The translations under genes and the position numbers were made by a program. Of a stretch of 42,765 nucleotides of DNA, positions 24,353-29,731 are shown in pieces; the first letter of the stretch is position 1, and the number at the start of each line of letters is the position of its first letter. Origin of the DNA: Escherichia phage K1ind2; sequence record NC_041898.1; one strand, given 5' to 3'. The notes under the pieces were generated by a model that made no database searches, was not told the DNA's origin, and worked only from the letters and a program-made list of their open reading frames with translations.

Positions 24353-25773
24353 TTCTTACCTCGTCTCTTCATGTAATTAAGCAATTCTTCCTGGACCGAT
24401 TTTTTCTCGTCGGTGCGCGCGGCAACAACCTCGTCCAGCGTGTCTTTAGCAACGATGTGATACAGGAACACCGGTCGCTCGTGCCCCGCCTGTTTCTGGC
24501 GGACCGGGCCTATTCGCTCGACAACCTGCAAATAGTGTTCAAGATTCCAGCCTTGCGAAATAAACGCCAGATGATGCCCGCCGTCCTGTAAATTCAAACC
24601 ATGCCCGGCTGACGCAGGATGCACGCATAAGATTTCGATTTCCCCGCGGTTCCACGCTTCCATCTGCTTATTGCCCTTAGCGCCTTTGGCGAACGCCTGT
24701 GCTTGTGGGAATCGCTTAAGGATACGCTCCAGTTCGTGCTTAAACTGATAGGCTACCAGTAACGGTGCGCCCTGTAACTCCTCAACAATGGACTCAAGCG
24801 CATCCAGTTTCGTATCGTGCACTTTCTCCCAGTCTTTCGTTGCTTCGCCGTCTGGCCCGGATACATACACGGCACCGGATGCAATCTGCAGGCACTTCGA
24901 CGTCTTCGCAGCAGCGTTAGCCGCTTCAACTTCCCCGCTCTCCAGTTCCGCGAATAACTTTTCCTCCATATCGATGTACGCCTGACGCGCCTTCTTCGGC
25001 AGGTCGATTTCAACCGGTACAATAATCGGCGCTTCGCAACCAAACCACTCGGCGGCGTCAATCGTGAGACTAATGTCTTTCATCTTCTGATGAATCTCAT
25101 TATCCGCACCCGGTCGTGCGTGATACTCCCGCGCCATCGCGGATTTCCCTTTCTGTACCGAGTTAAACCAGCGGTCTGTGAATGCCGTGTACGAAGAACC
25201 AAGGCGCTCGCCAGCGTCGATAAACCAGTTCTGCCCCCACAAGTCCTTGAGGCCGTTCGGCGACGGTGTGCCTGTCAGGTTAATGAAACGCTTAACCTTT
25301 CCGAACGCCACTTTGCTTAGCGCCTTAGCCCGTTTGCTTCCTCCAGAACGGCTACGGAAAGATTTCAGCTTCGTGCTCTCATCAGCAACGATAACCGTAA
25401 AAGGCCAGTCGTCTTTGCCGTAGTAGTCAATCAGCCACTCGATAACTTCGTAGTTTGTGCACACCACGTTAGCATCTGACTCCAGCGCCGCGATACGGCG
25501 CTTCTCTGAACCGGTTGCGTCTACGACACTCAGACAGGGGAAGTTCCAACGTGCCTGTTCCGCGGGCCACGTACCTGACGCAACACGTAAAGGAGCCAGA
25601 ATTAACACTCGGTCGTCGTCATTAAGTTGCCCATTACGGAACAGTCGATTGAGAACCCACAACGTTGACCCCGACTTACCGCTGCCCATGCTCGCCCAGA
25701 TATTGCAGCGATGGTGCCGCAGCATGAACGAAGTCATGAGCTTCTGGTATTCGCGCCTTTGAAACTTACTCAT
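24349..25773 (-). CDS. SNF2-family (superfamily 2) DNA helicase
   Basis: 474 aa; Walker A ASMGSGKSGST; DEST-type Walker B (VIVADESTKLK); C-terminal helicase domain motifs. Confidence 0.8.
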   Translation of the reverse strand: MSKFQRREYQKLMTSFMLRHHRCNIWASMGSGKSGSTLWVLNRLFRNGQLNDDDRVLILAPLRVASGTWPAEQARWNFPCLSVVDATGSEKRRIAALESDANVVCTNYEVIEWLIDYYGKDDWPFTVIVADESTKLKSFRSRSGGSKRAKALSKVAFGKVKRFINLTGTPSPNGLKDLWGQNWFIDAGERLGSSYTAFTDRWFNSVQKGKSAMAREYHARPGADNEIHQKMKDISLTIDAAEWFGCEAPIIVPVEIDLPKKARQAYIDMEEKLFAELESGEVEAANAAAKTSKCLQIASGAVYVSGPDGEATKDWEKVHDTKLDALESIVEELQGAPLLVAYQFKHELERILKRFPQAQAFAKGAKGNKQMEAWNRGEIEILCVHPASAGHGLNLQDGGHHLAFISQGWNLEHYLQVVERIGPVRQKQAGHERPVFLYHIVAKDTLDEVVAARTDEKKSVQEELLNYMKRRGKK

Positions 25774-26695
25774 TTACCGCCCCCATGAATGCCTTTATAA
25801 ATTCAGCGGCTACTTGCGGGACGATGGCATTGCCATAACCGCGCAATCGTCCCACTCTGGCGGGTATCCCATTAGCCAGCGGGAATGTGCCGGGTTCAAC
25901 TGGCCTGAATTTTCCATCACGGCATCCGAGCCAGTCAGTATCTGACCAGAAGCCGTGATGCGGATTGGTTGTGTTATTTTCAGACCCTGCTCCGTCGAGT
26001 AGTCCAGCCTGTCGAATGTCCTGTCCTTCCCGTCCTTGCGAATCACTGTCTCTCCGCTCCCCCTGTAGTCGTTCGCTGTCGGTGTAGGCCAAGCCGCCAT
26101 CGCAGCGGCCCATCCCAGTTTGTTCGGTTTCGTCCTGCCGTCTGTGCTGCGCATGTTCACGTCGTTTGTTATCAGTGATACCGCCGGTGTGGGCCAGTCT
26201 GTGAGCGCCGAAGAACAGTCTGTCGCGTTTGTGCGGTGCGCCGACGCTACAAGCTGGGAGTACGGCAAACCCGACGGCGTAGTCTTCTCCTTCCAGGTGA
26301 GTTTGTAAATCGCACATCCACGATTTTGCAATTGCTGGCGCAACCTGCTCCCCAAAGAGGACTGGAGGTCGGCACTCGCTGATAAGGTCGAGGAACACAG
26401 GTGCGAGGTGTCTCGGGTCGAACTGTCCGAGTTGCTTTCCCGCCGCGCTAAACGGTTGGCAAGGCGGGCTTCCCGTCCAGAGAGGCGCATCTTCCGGAAC
26501 TCCCGCAAGTCTGAGCGCGAGAGGCCAGCCGCCGATACCCGCGAAAAAATGACACTGGGTGAACCCGTCAAGGTCTTCTGGCTTAACTTCGGTAATGCTT
26601 CTTTCATCTACAACTCCAAAAGGTATGTGACCCTGTTTTATCAACTCACGCAGCCACGCGGCTGCGCCTTTATCCCATTCATTGTAATAGTTCAT
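25766..26695 (-). CDS. DNA cytosine-C5 methyltransferase-like protein (frame anomaly in middle)
   Basis: 309 aa; motif I FAGIGG, motif IV GSPPCQPFSAAGK, ENV-like FGEQV, motif VIII APHKRDRLFFG, C-terminal motif X GNAIVPQVAA. Central 100 aa are low-complexity, while an overlapping same-strand ORF (25810-26607) reads a protein-like segment ending in a motif IX-like LNPAHSRWLMGYP. Confidence 0.65.
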   Translation of the reverse strand: MNYYNEWDKGAAAWLRELIKQGHIPFGVVDERSITEVKPEDLDGFTQCHFFAGIGGWPLALRLAGVPEDAPLWTGSPPCQPFSAAGKQLGQFDPRHLAPVFLDLISECRPPVLFGEQVAPAIAKSWMCDLQTHLEGEDYAVGFAVLPACSVGAPHKRDRLFFGAHRLAHTGGITDNKRREHAQHRRQDETEQTGMGRCDGGLAYTDSERLQGERRDSDSQGREGQDIRQAGLLDGAGSENNTTNPHHGFWSDTDWLGCRDGKFRPVEPGTFPLANGIPARVGRLRGYGNAIVPQVAAEFIKAFMGAVNE

Positions 26696-26883
26696 TTCGC
26701 CACCAGAACTAACTCTTTACGCCCGAACGCCGTAACGTTACCGGTTACATCTTCGATAACCAGTTTACCGTTCGACTCGACGAACACCGTATCAACGGCA
26801 ACAGGTTGACGTGTCTTAACGTTGAAAATCATGTCACCCGGTACGATGTCACGTGCTGGTTTGCGGTCATATTCGTGTTTCAT
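26692..26883 (-). CDS. Hypothetical protein
   Basis: 63 aa; first gene downstream of minus-strand promoter copy at 26917-26945. Confidence 0.4.
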   Translation of the reverse strand: MKHEYDRKPARDIVPGDMIFNVKTRQPVAVDTVFVESNGKLVIEDVTGNVTAFGRKELVLVAK

Positions 26884-26913: not shown

Positions 26914-27198
26914 CTAACTATAATAGCTAGCTATTAGGTCGTCAACCTGTTTAAACGAACCAACGACAAAAACATTCGCACCACGTTTACGCATCCGCTC
27001 ATGTTCCCGTAGCTGGTGCGGGTCTGGCTTCGTGTTCTCGTCTTTCTTAACCTCGACGAACCAGACTATGCCGCCGGGGAGAATTACCAGCAGGTCTGGG
27101 GCGCCGGAACGCCCCTCGTAGGAGAGTTTGCGAACGAGGCCGCCAAGGGCCTCGAATCGGTCTTTTGCGTATTTCTGTACGCGGCCCTCTTTAGTCAT
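26914..27198 (-). CDS. VRR-NUC domain nuclease (PD-(D/E)xK)
   Basis: ORF track 26914-27213; ATG at 27198 (ATGA overlap with upstream small ORF) preferred. Motif GAPDLLVILPGGIVWFVEVKK matches the D...E-x-K core of VRR-NUC proteins. Confidence 0.6.
   Translation of the reverse strand: MTKEGRVQKYAKDRFEALGGLVRKLSYEGRSGAPDLLVILPGGIVWFVEVKKDENTKPDPHQLREHERMRKRGANVFVVGSFKQVDDLIASYYS
26917..26945 (-). promoter_or_regulatory. Sigma70-type promoter (TTGACG-N17-TATAGT), copy 1 of 3
   Basis: Minus-strand -35 TTGACG (plus 26940-26945), 17-nt spacer, -10 TATAGT (plus 26917-26922); about 31-bp element conserved with 30471-30499 and 32569-32597. Confidence 0.6.
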
Positions 27199-27347
27199 GA
27201 GCGTAGATCCCAAGTAAGGAAAGCCCCTCCTAGAACGGCGACACCGACAAACTTAAAGAACAGGCCGTAACAGAACATCGCGGCTATTCCCGCACCGAGT
27301 AACAGCGCGAGCATGGTTACTATCGTCCAAAATACAAACATTGTCAT
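27195..27347 (-). CDS. Small membrane peptide (50 aa)
   Basis: Hand-found; hydrophobic (FVFWTIVTMLALLLGAGIAAMFCYGLFF); ATGA overlaps at both ends. Confidence 0.3.
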   Translation of the reverse strand: MTMFVFWTIVTMLALLLGAGIAAMFCYGLFFKFVGVAVLGGAFLTWDLRS

Positions 27348-27433
27348 AACACGCACCCCTCCCGTTTTGTATGCTCAATACCGCAGCGCGGGCAGATTCG
27401 GCAGTCTTCTTCATAGAACCAGTAAATTTTCAT
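27344..27433 (-). CDS. Small Cys-rich peptide (29 aa)
   Basis: Hand-found; DCRICPRCG...EGC; ATGA overlaps on both sides. Very short, so weak. Confidence 0.2.
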   Translation of the reverse strand: MKIYWFYEEDCRICPRCGIEHTKREGCVL

Positions 27434-27561
27434 TCCAGCACCCACAGATAAATTGCAACTAACATACACAATACGGCGACCATCATGCCGTATTGCCCCT
27501 CATGACAGTAGACACCCGCGGCGAATCCCGCCAGTACCGCGATAATCAGTTTACTTAGCAT
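27430..27561 (-). CDS. Small membrane peptide (43 aa)
   Basis: Hand-found; hydrophobic; ATG overlaps the 3' end of the DNA polymerase gene. Confidence 0.3.
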   Translation of the reverse strand: MLSKLIIAVLAGFAAGVYCHEGQYGMMVAVLCMLVAIYLWVLE

Positions 27562-29731
27562 AACGCTTCATCTCCGCACCTTCTGCTACAAGAGGGAACC
27601 CCTCAGCCCATTCCGGTAATTCGCACATCAACCGCTCAAGCTCTGCAACATTGTATTCTGGTAAATCTGGTGTCTCGCAGATAATCTCATCGTGTACGTG
27701 AAGCACAATCGGATAGCCGTTTGCTTCTACGTTAAGCAGCGCATTAGCCAACAAATCACGGCACAGCGCCTGAGTGCAGTTTTCCACGAGTTTACCGGAA
27801 TATGTGTACTGGAAGCCCCACTGCCGTGTTAACTGGTTTTCGCCCTGGTACTTGATGCGGACGTTAGTGGACACCTTCCCGTCTTCGTCTGTCTCTTTCG
27901 ACACGCTTAACCCGACACCTGGATAAGACATAACGCGGCCCGACGGCAACGTCATGCGCAACCACCAACCGGCGACTTTGTTGCCGTTGTTATCTGTCTC
28001 TACGTTACGCGAAAACTTAACGCCGCGAGGCCCTGCAGTGAACTCTTTACCTGGATTGCGGATAGCTGCCATAGCTGCGTCTTCAATATCCCGCCAGAAA
28101 GCTACTGTTTCAGGGTGAGACTCCCGCCACATACGCTTGATGGCGTCGCATGTACGCCACACTTTCTTGTCCAGAATATATGATGGTCGGTCATCTTTTT
28201 CACCGGGACGTGGCGGTCTCTTGGCTTCCTGAATACGCGCCCACTCATACCCACGCGCGGTAGCGGCCCAGATGTGGTCGGGGAAAGTCCCGTCCATTGT
28301 TTTTGCCATATCAACAAGGTCAAGGCCGAGGTTCTTGGCGAACTGTACGAATGCGCCGACACCACCCGCGTAGCCAAGTCCCAGTTCGCATGCCTTACCA
28401 ATCTGGCGTAAGTCTTTACGTTCTTTCTTAATGTAATCCGGCTCCATACCGAACATCTTACCCGCGGTTACGCAGTAAATATCCAGTCCGGCACGGAACG
28501 TATCTAGCGCGGTTTCTTCCCCCGCCAGCCACGCAAGCCCGCGGCCTTCGACGTTAGAGTAATCGGCAACGACAAACTTATGTCCGGCTTCCGGGATAAT
28601 GCAGCTGCGAACCGTAGATGCCGTTAGCTTGGCTACATCAAAACGGCGATGTGCTCGGCCCTTAAGTAATGCTGAAATACCTTTATCCAGTTCATCATCG
28701 TGATAGTACCCACGCGCCAGGTTCTGCGGCTGGAAGCCTTTACCCGCAAATCGTAACGTACGTTTAGCTCCACCATACTGGATGCAACCGCGACGGCGGT
28801 CGTCAGACGAGCGGCCTAACAGCAGCGGGTTATATTTCGTTGACGCAGTGGATGCCGCCCCGAGGCGCATTTCTATAATCGTGCGGGCGTCGTCCGGTAA
28901 ATCATCGTCAGCAAGCAGGTCGTTAAGCGTAGACTTCTGCGCGTTGTGGATGCGATGCGCAGGCGCCAGTTCACGCAGAATCGGCAGGAAGTCCTTACCT
29001 GTAAGCGAGCCGCCGTATTTACGTTGGGCTTCTTCCTGTAACTGTGCCTTGTGTTTCTCCACAGCTTCAATTGCGGCTTCCGCCAGCGCAACGTCGACCT
29101 TAAACCCGCGGTCGTTAATTAACTGGTCCAGTTCCAGTACACGGTCTTCGAACTCGGAGTTACCCCAACGCGGCAACTTATGGAACACTTCACGCATCGC
29201 GGTGATGTCGCTAACGGCGTACTTGATGAACAGCGCCCACTCATCCGGGTGCGTTTCAGCAGTGTAGCGGCGAATTTTGTAGTTCTTCGGCGTCGGTTTA
29301 GAGAAACGCTGAATAAGCGCTTTGCCTCGTTTGTCTTTCGCGTTGTCTGCAGACACGCCAAGCACTTCGCACAATGCGTCGAGTGAACCCGGCAGCGCGT
29401 GACGAAACGCCCAAATCATCGTATCAATGGTGTTGCTTACGGGAATATCAAAACCCCAGCAGTGCTTCATGATGAGTCTGTCGAACATTGAGCCGTTGTG
29501 CCACACCATCTTAATACGGCTGTTTGGTTTCACCAGACGGCGTAACGCGCGGTGCAAATCCCCCGGCATGTCGCTGCCGTCGGTGCAGTCCCATACCTGT
29601 ACATGCTCGTCGTCAAAAGCATATGTGCAGATAAGCACTTCGGTGGTTGGGTGTTCGGCGTAAGCGTAGGAACCAACTTTCTTCAAATCGGCTTCGGAGA
29701 ATGTTTCAAAGTCTAAGAACAGGTAACTCAT
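27551..29731 (-). CDS. DNA polymerase I-type (family A) with N-terminal 3'-5' exonuclease domain
   Basis: 726 aa; N-terminal LFLDFETFS exonuclease motif; C-terminal family A motif C (VLHVHDEIICE). Confidence 0.9.
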   Translation of the reverse strand: MSYLFLDFETFSEADLKKVGSYAYAEHPTTEVLICTYAFDDEHVQVWDCTDGSDMPGDLHRALRRLVKPNSRIKMVWHNGSMFDRLIMKHCWGFDIPVSNTIDTMIWAFRHALPGSLDALCEVLGVSADNAKDKRGKALIQRFSKPTPKNYKIRRYTAETHPDEWALFIKYAVSDITAMREVFHKLPRWGNSEFEDRVLELDQLINDRGFKVDVALAEAAIEAVEKHKAQLQEEAQRKYGGSLTGKDFLPILRELAPAHRIHNAQKSTLNDLLADDDLPDDARTIIEMRLGAASTASTKYNPLLLGRSSDDRRRGCIQYGGAKRTLRFAGKGFQPQNLARGYYHDDELDKGISALLKGRAHRRFDVAKLTASTVRSCIIPEAGHKFVVADYSNVEGRGLAWLAGEETALDTFRAGLDIYCVTAGKMFGMEPDYIKKERKDLRQIGKACELGLGYAGGVGAFVQFAKNLGLDLVDMAKTMDGTFPDHIWAATARGYEWARIQEAKRPPRPGEKDDRPSYILDKKVWRTCDAIKRMWRESHPETVAFWRDIEDAAMAAIRNPGKEFTAGPRGVKFSRNVETDNNGNKVAGWWLRMTLPSGRVMSYPGVGLSVSKETDEDGKVSTNVRIKYQGENQLTRQWGFQYTYSGKLVENCTQALCRDLLANALLNVEANGYPIVLHVHDEIICETPDLPEYNVAELERLMCELPEWAEGFPLVAEGAEMKRYAK

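Follow-up and report, generated by a model that had tools for sequence, protein, structure and literature searches.

Three overlapping micro-genes between the DNA polymerase and VRR-NUC genes of a Guernseyvirinae phage: a conserved Cys/His-rich core gene and two variably present hydrophobic peptides

AcrZ, MgrB, MgtS, KdpF, and CydX are bacterial inner-membrane regulators of 29–49 aa, which act by binding a larger membrane protein. T4 Imm and Sp and HK97 gp15 are phage membrane proteins that are made during infection and function in superinfection exclusion or immunity. Phage T7 has genes 5.3–5.9 between those for its polymerase and its exonuclease; several of these small genes act on host functions, and their products are soluble. 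The three tiny ORFs analyzed here, ORF1, ORF2, and ORF3, lie between a DNA polymerase gene and a VRR-NUC nuclease gene, and are similar to the T7 genes in being packed between replication genes, an analogy of position only with no homology. ORF1 and ORF3 are like the bacterial regulators in size, in consisting mostly of a hydrophobic helix, and in having no enzymatic domain; however, they share no sequence similarity with them, and are phage-encoded and clade-restricted. Similarly, they are small predicted membrane proteins and accessory, as are T4 Imm, Sp, and HK97 gp15, but they have no PHROG or Pfam match to such proteins and lie in a replication operon. The closest described counterparts are hypothetical CDSs in related phages, such as Bas70_0041/0040/0039 and Schulenberg_042/041/040, which have the same position, lengths, and overlaps as ORF1–ORF3; no difference was found. 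Since many relatives already annotate these ORFs as hypothetical proteins, ORF1–ORF3 are, judging by sequence, not new but members of catalogued hypothetical families. The only RNA-seq study of a Kagunavirus, with 57 genes annotated, is too coarse to resolve them, and no functional or expression data on ORF1–ORF3 were found in the literature searched.

The window, that is, the whole 42,765-nucleotide stretch of DNA analyzed, comes from Escherichia phage K1ind2 (NC_041898.1). In a sequence search, the region was 100% identical to Escherichia phage K1ind3 (GU196281.1; Kagunavirus, subfamily Guernseyvirinae). According to the sequence and the ORF list, the genes follow one another on the minus strand in the order polymerase, ORF1, ORF2, ORF3, and VRR-NUC, and the features are located as follows.

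27551..29731, minus strand: DNA polymerase (family A), upstream member of the chain (GenBank ADA82478.1, "putative DNA polymerase")
27430..27561, minus strand: ORF1, 43 aa, MLSKLIIAVLAGFAAGVYCHEGQYGMMVAVLCMLVAIYLWVLE; phrog_10404
27344..27433, minus strand: ORF2, 29 aa, MKIYWFYEEDCRICPRCGIEHTKREGCVL; phrog_38225
27356..27363, minus strand: predicted Shine-Dalgarno (SD) sequence of ORF3, or of any other gene in its slot, GGGAGGGG, within ORF2 codons R24-E25-G26
27195..27347, minus strand: ORF3, 50 aa, MTMFVFWTIVTMLALLLGAGIAAMFCYGLFFKFVGVAVLGGAFLTWDLRS; phrog_14925; occupies the variable slot between ORF2 and VRR-NUC
26914..27198, minus strand: VRR-NUC nuclease gene, 94 aa counted from the ATG, downstream member of the chain

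The initial annotation had described three minus-strand ORFs of 43, 29, and 50 codons feeding into VRR-NUC, and both the lengths and the overlaps were confirmed. It had also placed the start of ORF1 downstream of the polymerase stop. Instead, ORF1 overlaps the end of the polymerase gene by 11 nt, its ATG lies in this overlap (ATGCTAAGTAA), and the junction is kept across relatives as ATGC[T/C]AAGTAA. The junctions ORF1/ORF2, ORF2/ORF3, and ORF3/VRR-NUC are all ATGA overlaps. In relatives, the first of them was ATGA in 52 of 54 loci and GTGA in the other 2, and the remaining two were ATGA or GTGA in nearly all loci. Bas70, a close relative, is annotated with 4-nt overlaps at about 20 of its 82 gene junctions, among them another series of three consecutive ones, and micro-genes of 30–50 codons are common in it. 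ATGA chaining is the usual packing style of the genome and is not unusual here. The VRR-NUC protein matched the PHROG endonuclease/Holliday junction resolvase annotation (E = 9.5e-34), and is labeled VRR-NUC or resolvase in the annotations of relatives. In the K1ind3 record (GU196281), the polymerase is annotated and is followed by nothing up to a cytosine methylase, so that ORF1, ORF2, ORF3, VRR-NUC, and a 63-aa ORF are all absent from a stretch of about 900 bp.

Each ORF corresponded to a PHROG family in HMM comparisons. ORF1 matched phrog_10404 (E = 1.2e-31, residues 1–43 of 43), ORF2 matched phrog_38225 (E = 2.5e-22, 5–32 of 36), and ORF3 matched phrog_14925 (E = 4.3e-33, residues 1–50 of 50); all three are families of unknown function. 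For comparative analysis, 92 loci were gathered, 13 from GenBank matches and 79 from IMG/VR with the neighboring VRR-NUC protein as anchor, and 62 of the 92 were close relatives anchored on VRR-NUC or on DNA similarity. Because the loci were anchored on a neighboring gene, the sample is not skewed to carriers of the micro-ORFs. In the 62 related loci, the called frame was open in 100% of the sequences in which the ORF was full length. Each of the other frames, on either strand, contained stops in some sequences, ranging from 10/51 to all of them and reaching at least 37/45 except in two frames. The antisense frame that shares wobble positions gave a low dN/dS ratio, as its geometry predicts, and contained stops in 45/45, 50/51, and 27/27 sequences. 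An antisense-gene reading was ruled out by this six-frame test.

Selection was estimated as pooled pairwise Nei-Gojobori dN/dS, without phylogenetic correction, on sequences that are at least 75% identical and recombining. On this basis, dN/dS was 0.19 for ORF1 (codon-bootstrap CI 0.10–0.32), 0.076 for ORF2 (0.04–0.18), and 0.18 for ORF3 (0.10–0.27), and 0.8–3.3 in the wrong sense frames of the three ORFs. At the same loci, the last 100 codons of the polymerase gave 0.089 and VRR-NUC gave 0.134. Substitutions piled up at third codon positions in the called frame only. In ORF2, codons varied at fixed residues, with all four CGN codons found at R24, all four ACN codons at T22, and TGT and TGC alternating at each Cys. 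The conservation and Ka/Ks check proposed along with the initial annotation was therefore in favor of coding, with full-length PHROG matches, a called frame that is always open, and dN/dS of 0.08–0.19 in relatives. As to the ORF-breaking indels that the same annotation had named as evidence to the contrary, indels in ORF3 were in-frame deletions of 3 aa and 5 aa, and ORF2 was intact in 62/62 loci; ORF1 showed rare frameshift fusions in metagenome assemblies. The frame-specific openness, low dN/dS, codon turnover, and in-frame indels place the constraint on the peptides and not on the DNA or RNA. As far as these comparisons go, each of ORF1–ORF3 is kept open and is under purifying selection on its amino-acid sequence, and the three are very probably real, independently evolving coding genes with a polymerase-to-VRR-NUC organization. 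The result is clean comparative evidence that phage ORFs of sub-50-codon size are genuine genes.

The distribution of the three genes was determined by tblastn against 50,697 phage records, about 445 of which carry the region. ORF2 was found in about 442 of them, i.e., in essentially every Jerseyvirus and Kagunavirus record. By this distribution and its dN/dS, ORF2 is a core gene of the Jerseyvirus/Kagunavirus clade that is as constrained as the polymerase. Its product is polar, and the initial description of the middle ORF as Cys-rich held: there are 4 Cys in 29 aa, including a CPRCG knuckle, and C14, C17, H21, and C27 are near-invariant. C14 and C27 were conserved in 62/62 loci, C17 in 61/62, H21 in 60/62, and C11 in 55/62. 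C11 was replaced by R or F in 7/62 loci, single variants occurred at C17 or H21, and one C27R variant was present in a database. A putative metal site of the form C-x2-C-x3-H-x5-C (C14, C17, H21, C27) is plausible, and the ligand set is a guess because variants exist at C11, C17, H21, and C27. The AlphaFold2 model of ORF2 was unusable (pLDDT 58).

Comparison of ORF2 with known zinc proteins yielded motif-level likeness. Its ICPRCG resembles the CPxCG knuckles of S27ae, archaeal RpoM/TFS, RPA12, and Nop10, with a further conserved His and Cys, but in a PDB profile search the matches to S27ae, RpoM, RPA12, and Nop10 were confined to the motif and not significant (E 1.1–4.7), and ORF2 has one clear knuckle, not two. 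Against Pfam, the best match was zf_C2H2_ZNF598 (E = 0.22), below the cut-off. When 1.84 billion cluster representatives were searched exhaustively with an HMM of ORF2, no distant homologs were found, and only the ORF2 family was recovered. Five other matches in that search were multi-stretch hits in repetitive Cys-motif proteins and were rejected as homologs.

The ORF2 peptide might reside in the cytoplasm and fold around a metal ion coordinated by C14, C17, H21, and C27, and it might have a phage-intrinsic role, for example, as a binding partner of nucleic acid or of a replication or regulatory protein. Because ORF2 is found universally and matches the polymerase in constraint, we speculate that such a role through a protein or nucleic-acid partner is the more likely one; the strong constraint in itself is equally compatible with a replication role and with a host-directed role. 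A more far-reaching reading is that ORF2 is a clade-defining, indispensable 29-residue metal-binding micro-protein that works with or controls replication or recombination, with ORF1 and the slot supplying interchangeable host-tuning membrane peptides. We regard this reading as doubtful. If it were true, few conserved phage proteins with a core function would be as small as ORF2.

The other two genes are distributed differently. ORF1 was present in 222 phage records, about half, and in the related loci it was recognizable in 54/62 and full length and open in 51/62. ORF3 was present in 119 records, about a quarter, and in 28/62 loci. ORF1 is universal in Kagunavirus, being found in all Kagunavirus-type records, but many Jerseyviruses have lost it or carry a decayed copy. 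One large Jerseyvirus group lost ORF1 by an in-frame deletion that fused the first ORF1 residues to ORF2 (MLSKLIIYYF...); in addition to the frameshift fusions, decay was seen as an ACG start in SETP3 and a shortened 33-aa version in ER10. The slot between ORF2 and VRR-NUC is a hot-swap site in which ORF3 is one of several alternative cargoes. In relatives, it contained ORF3, nothing, a 165-aa HNH homing endonuclease, an HNH remnant, a 64–67-aa soluble ORF with or without ORF3, or unrelated tiny hydrophobic peptides (25 aa and 23 aa). When the slot is empty, ORF2 ends in ...VDEYA and overlaps VRR-NUC by 11 nt. Homing endonuclease genes were inserted on both sides of the micro-ORF cluster in relatives.

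More distant phages, in which the polymerase C-terminus and VRR-NUC are 40–70% identical, carried none of ORF1–ORF3. In them, the polymerase/VRR-NUC junction was occupied by unrelated cargo of between 9 nt and 1.5 kb, and in two it was a gap of only 82 nt. Some of this junction cargo consisted of small TM or Cys-rich-plus-TM ORFs. As distant phages with both flanking genes have none of the three, ORF1–ORF3 are lineage-specific additions rather than obligatory partners of the polymerase or nuclease. A word-indexed search of 5.8 billion proteins, in which ORF2 was queried as a 41-aa in-frame extension, found no homologs of ORF1–ORF3 outside the Jerseyvirus/Kagunavirus clade; only relatives at about 75% identity or more were recovered, on 40–45 kb phage contigs. 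A paralogous relationship between ORF1 and ORF3 was rejected (hhalign probability 0.4%).

The initial annotation had treated the three ORFs as one chain, and the unity this implies did not survive the comparison. ORF1, ORF2, and ORF3 were gained and lost independently, with both ORF1 and ORF3 in 26 loci, ORF1 only in 28, ORF3 only in 2, and neither in 6, and with record totals of 222, about 442, and 119. These data also bear on the possibility that the three products form one obligate complex, in which two membrane anchors and a zinc peptide would tether or regulate the replisome (polymerase, VRR-NUC, helicase) at the membrane. Such a complex would fit the position of the ORFs within the replication operon, translationally chained to the polymerase and VRR-NUC, as well as the fixed stoichiometry favored by chained overlaps and a constraint on ORF2 equal to that on the polymerase. 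However, the presence of ORF1 is independent of that of ORF3, the two are not paralogs, the ORF3 slot may be empty or hold an HNH endonuclease, and all three are missing from distant relatives whose polymerase and VRR-NUC are homologous. We consider an obligate complex improbable, although ORF2 by itself might act in the replisome.

ORF1 and ORF3 were strongly hydrophobic, in agreement with the initial annotation, with GRAVY values of 1.55 and 1.60, respectively. Kyte-Doolittle means over 19-residue windows were 1.9–2.3 in both, corresponding to a hydrophobic, helical stretch of bilayer-spanning length. The "single-helix" description given earlier was not supported for either peptide. ORF1 has two hydrophobic segments, residues 1–19 and 24–42, split by the strongly conserved polar loop CHEGQYG, and its N-terminal half and the loop are its most conserved parts. 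Because the two segments flank a conserved loop, the sequence points to a helical hairpin more than to a single span, and ORF1 is predicted to be an inner-membrane micro-protein. ORF3 is hydrophobic over residues 1–46, more than twice a membrane span, with Gly/Ala-rich packing motifs. Its position 32 is always polar yet variable (K/E/Q/R/N), and the 5-aa deletion is tolerated at residues 25–29. AlphaFold2 predicted ORF3 as one continuous helix over residues 2–49 (pLDDT 90.8). The prediction confirms that ORF3 is helical. In this model, the helix would be too long for a simple span, and as a membrane-free monomer the model leaves the choice between a hairpin and a single span undecided.

The products of ORF1 and ORF3 would be helical peptides inserted in the inner membrane of the host. 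There they might play an accessory, host-directed part, by binding or disturbing either an inner-membrane protein of the host or the membrane as such, and would not belong to the replisome. This reading is based on their being dispensable, lineage-specific, and interchangeable with the other tiny hydrophobic peptides of the slot. By analogy, ORF1 and ORF3 may resemble small membrane regulators or exclusion/immunity peptides, and we put this forward tentatively, as a possibility somewhat short of likely. Pfam and PADLOC scans of ORF1–ORF3 gave nothing above threshold, and the weak matches (EMC6, MARVEL, PufX, ZNF598) reflected composition or a short motif. As to known exclusion, immunity, or defense families, ORF1–ORF3 had no PADLOC match and no functional PHROG or Pfam match. 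The host-takeover or exclusion role suggested in the initial annotation drew no direct support from these comparisons or from the literature searched.

The size and extreme hydrophobicity of ORF1 and ORF3 would also suit lysis-timing proteins (holin, antiholin, or pinholin-like) or membrane-depolarizing toxins like Hok and TisB. ORF1 has a weak PHROG holin match (phrog_1527, E = 0.31), and the Gly/Ala-rich helix-packing motifs LLLGAGIAA and VLGGA are consistent with oligomerization. However, the ORF1 match is not significant, ORF3 has none, no Pfam holin family was matched, and the charged C-terminal tail typical of holins is absent from both. The clade has a separate cassette with two holins, endolysin, and spanins, which in Bas70 lies about 13 kb away on the other strand, and this location elsewhere in the genome argues against a canonical lysis role. 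Moreover, the ORFs lie in the replication operon with no endolysin adjoining, and each of ORF1 and ORF3 is dispensable in many natural genomes. A lysis or toxin function of either peptide is thus distinctly unlikely, and accessory, host-directed membrane factors are the reading that we prefer for ORF1 and ORF3.

The micro-genes ORF1–ORF3 belong to the leftward replication operon of the phage, a member of the Guernseyvirinae. Promoters or terminators within the cluster showed no excess over shuffled sequence, which suggests that the micro-ORFs share a transcript with the polymerase and VRR-NUC. The best promoter-like site (26945..26917, 10/12 matches) falls at the 3′ end of VRR-NUC; a promoter is annotated there in the Jersey record as well. 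The predicted SD:anti-SD pairing differed among the genes. It was strongest for ORF3, at -10.8 kcal/mol via GGGAGGGG, beyond the 1st percentile of the window background. The pairing of ORF1 was moderate (-6.6 kcal/mol), and those of ORF2 (-3.7 kcal/mol) and VRR-NUC (-4.0 kcal/mol) were near background (median -2.4). The ORF2 codons that contain the ORF3 SD are themselves almost fixed: of 51 unique sequences, all 51 have GAG as codon 25 and 49 have GGG as codon 26.

The initial annotation had proposed translational coupling along the whole chain. In our analysis, coupling is plausible for ORF2 and VRR-NUC, whose predicted SDs are near background, but the claim does not extend to ORF3, which needs no coupling because it has a strong SD of its own. 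In the Jerseyvirus deletion, the start context of ORF1 was left fused to ORF2, which is consistent with ORF2 being without its own initiation site. Ribosomes would travel from the polymerase through ORF1, ORF2, and ORF3 to VRR-NUC. ORF2 and VRR-NUC, given their weak SDs, would start mainly by termination-reinitiation at the ATGA overlaps, and the start of ORF3 would use the strong SD embedded in the end of ORF2. That ORF1–ORF3 are untranslated, and conserved because the DNA or RNA itself is constrained (as a regulatory element, homing-endonuclease target, antisense gene, or coupling spacer from polymerase to VRR-NUC), is highly improbable: the ORFs are very short and were left out of the annotation of K1ind3, the homing endonuclease genes flanking the cluster on both sides in relatives mean that nearby DNA could be a target, and GAGGGG within ORF2 is constrained as an SD, but the third-position bias of substitutions is seen in the called frame only, residues stay fixed while codons turn over, no frame other than the called one is always open (the antisense one having stops in 45/45, 50/51, and 27/27 sequences), and indels are in-frame.

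Taken together, the gene arrangement at this locus is commonplace for a phage, and ORF2 is its one member of some mild interest. Phage genomes encode small hypothetical membrane proteins in abundance, and current understanding is unchanged by the present results. The useful outputs are the annotation fix for K1ind3, whose record lacks five real genes, the recognition of ORF2 as invariant, and an account of the variable slot. Cargo is exchanged at the polymerase/VRR-NUC junction, a hot-spot at which membrane peptides, homing endonucleases, and other small ORFs are swapped, and natural isolates with and without ORF3 are available, for example, in the BASEL collection. For experimental work on these phages, the gene to choose is ORF2, which is invariant, rather than those of the membrane peptides.

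Two genes close to the micro-ORF cluster were absent from the GenBank record of phage K1ind3, and both are annotated in relatives. A promoter-like site, the best sigma-70-like match of the region (10/12), lies within the 3' end of the first and upstream of the second.
26914..27198, minus strand, VRR-NUC nuclease gene
26692..26883, minus strand, conserved 63-aa ORF
26917..26945, minus strand, sigma-70-like site (TTGACG, 17 nt, TATAGT)
The record of phage Jersey carries an annotated promoter at the same place. In one relative, KMB36, the 63-aa ORF is named "putative copper transporting ATPase," a name based on a sub-threshold Pfam E1-E2_ATPase match (E = 0.0073, 16.3 bits vs. a cut-off of 28.1).

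In the methylase region, GenBank annotates a "C-specific methylase" and an "Mte8-like" gene, two long ORFs whose frames differ and which overlap completely.
25766..26695, minus strand, 309-aa ORF
25810..26607, minus strand, 265-aa ORF
In the 309-aa product, the Pfam DNA_methylase match is limited to residues 68-169, and the middle part is low-complexity in appearance. The overlapping frame contains repeated WPTP motifs and had no Pfam match. The length of the methylase gene varies among relatives, from 684 to 930 nt. The overlapping pair could reflect a frameshift, an insertion or overprinting.

Several automated names of the micro-ORF peptides were misleading, such as "3-hydroxyanthranilate 3,4-dioxygenase" for ORF2 and "PufX" for ORF3; such names were found in the database entries P0006 and P0057, in the related-phage locus L002 (MZ997838) and in OQ442786. 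In phage ULINTec2, ORF3 is tagged "putative nuclease" and the adjoining real VRR-NUC gene is tagged "hypothetical," a pattern suggestive of an off-by-one transfer. In addition, contigs of approximately 2-43 kb with homologs of ORF1 were found in NCBI assemblies labeled as E. coli or Salmonella enterica (entries P0129, P0155, P0157, P0159, P0179, and P0189). The probable reason is co-assembly of phage contigs with bacterial isolates.

The slot after ORF2 had other occupants among the loci collected from related phages (L-numbers, with locus coordinates).
L023 1924-2001, L067 (same slot) and L040 1930-2001, tiny hydrophobic ORFs
L006 1473-1667, and L010, L022, L033, and L017 (same slot), soluble ORF of 64-67 aa
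Two sequences were found for the tiny hydrophobic ORFs, one of 25 aa, MTMLTTIMIIVAVFLGVAVLSKVTD, and one of 23 aa, MITIIAVLVALLLGAAIFSRIIG. Both start with the same ATGA overlap, and they may be truncated or diverged variants of ORF3, or independent membrane peptides. In about 10 of the 62 loci, with or without ORF3, ORF2 is followed by a 187-nt insert occupied by the soluble ORF (MSNKPFSKKLAALVDMPEWEF...CAGCTHKGVYY...); the only Pfam match of this ORF was a sub-threshold one to the A2L zinc ribbon.

Homing-type endonuclease genes were inserted on both flanks of the cluster in relatives.
L007 1470-1967, L009 1474-1971, L012 1358-1855, L013 816-1511, and L037 1265-1780, homing-type endonuclease genes beside the cluster
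At one position, an HNH gene lies immediately 3' of ORF2; at the other, an endonuclease VII or HNH gene lies between the polymerase gene and ORF1, and with this insert the ...AK* / ATGCCAAGTAA junction was reproduced. Some relatives also carry inteins in the polymerase and helicase genes.

Across loci L001-L061, the identity of the C-terminal 108 aa of the polymerase to K1ind3 was bimodal, at about 70-80% or 95-100%, and did not follow the identity of the adjoining micro-ORFs or VRR-NUC. This pattern indicates that recombination breakpoints lie close to the 3' end of the gene for the polymerase. In distant relatives, the polymerase/VRR-NUC junction holds unrelated small ORFs.
L089 1796-2005, L078 1503-1763, L086 686-1023, and L081 1765-2004, unrelated small ORFs
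In one example, a TM helix follows a Cys-rich N-terminus (CNCNCNQGRxCP); other examples are pairs of hydrophobic peptides, 45 and 67 aa in length. Small membrane proteins appear to recur at the polymerase/VRR-NUC junction.
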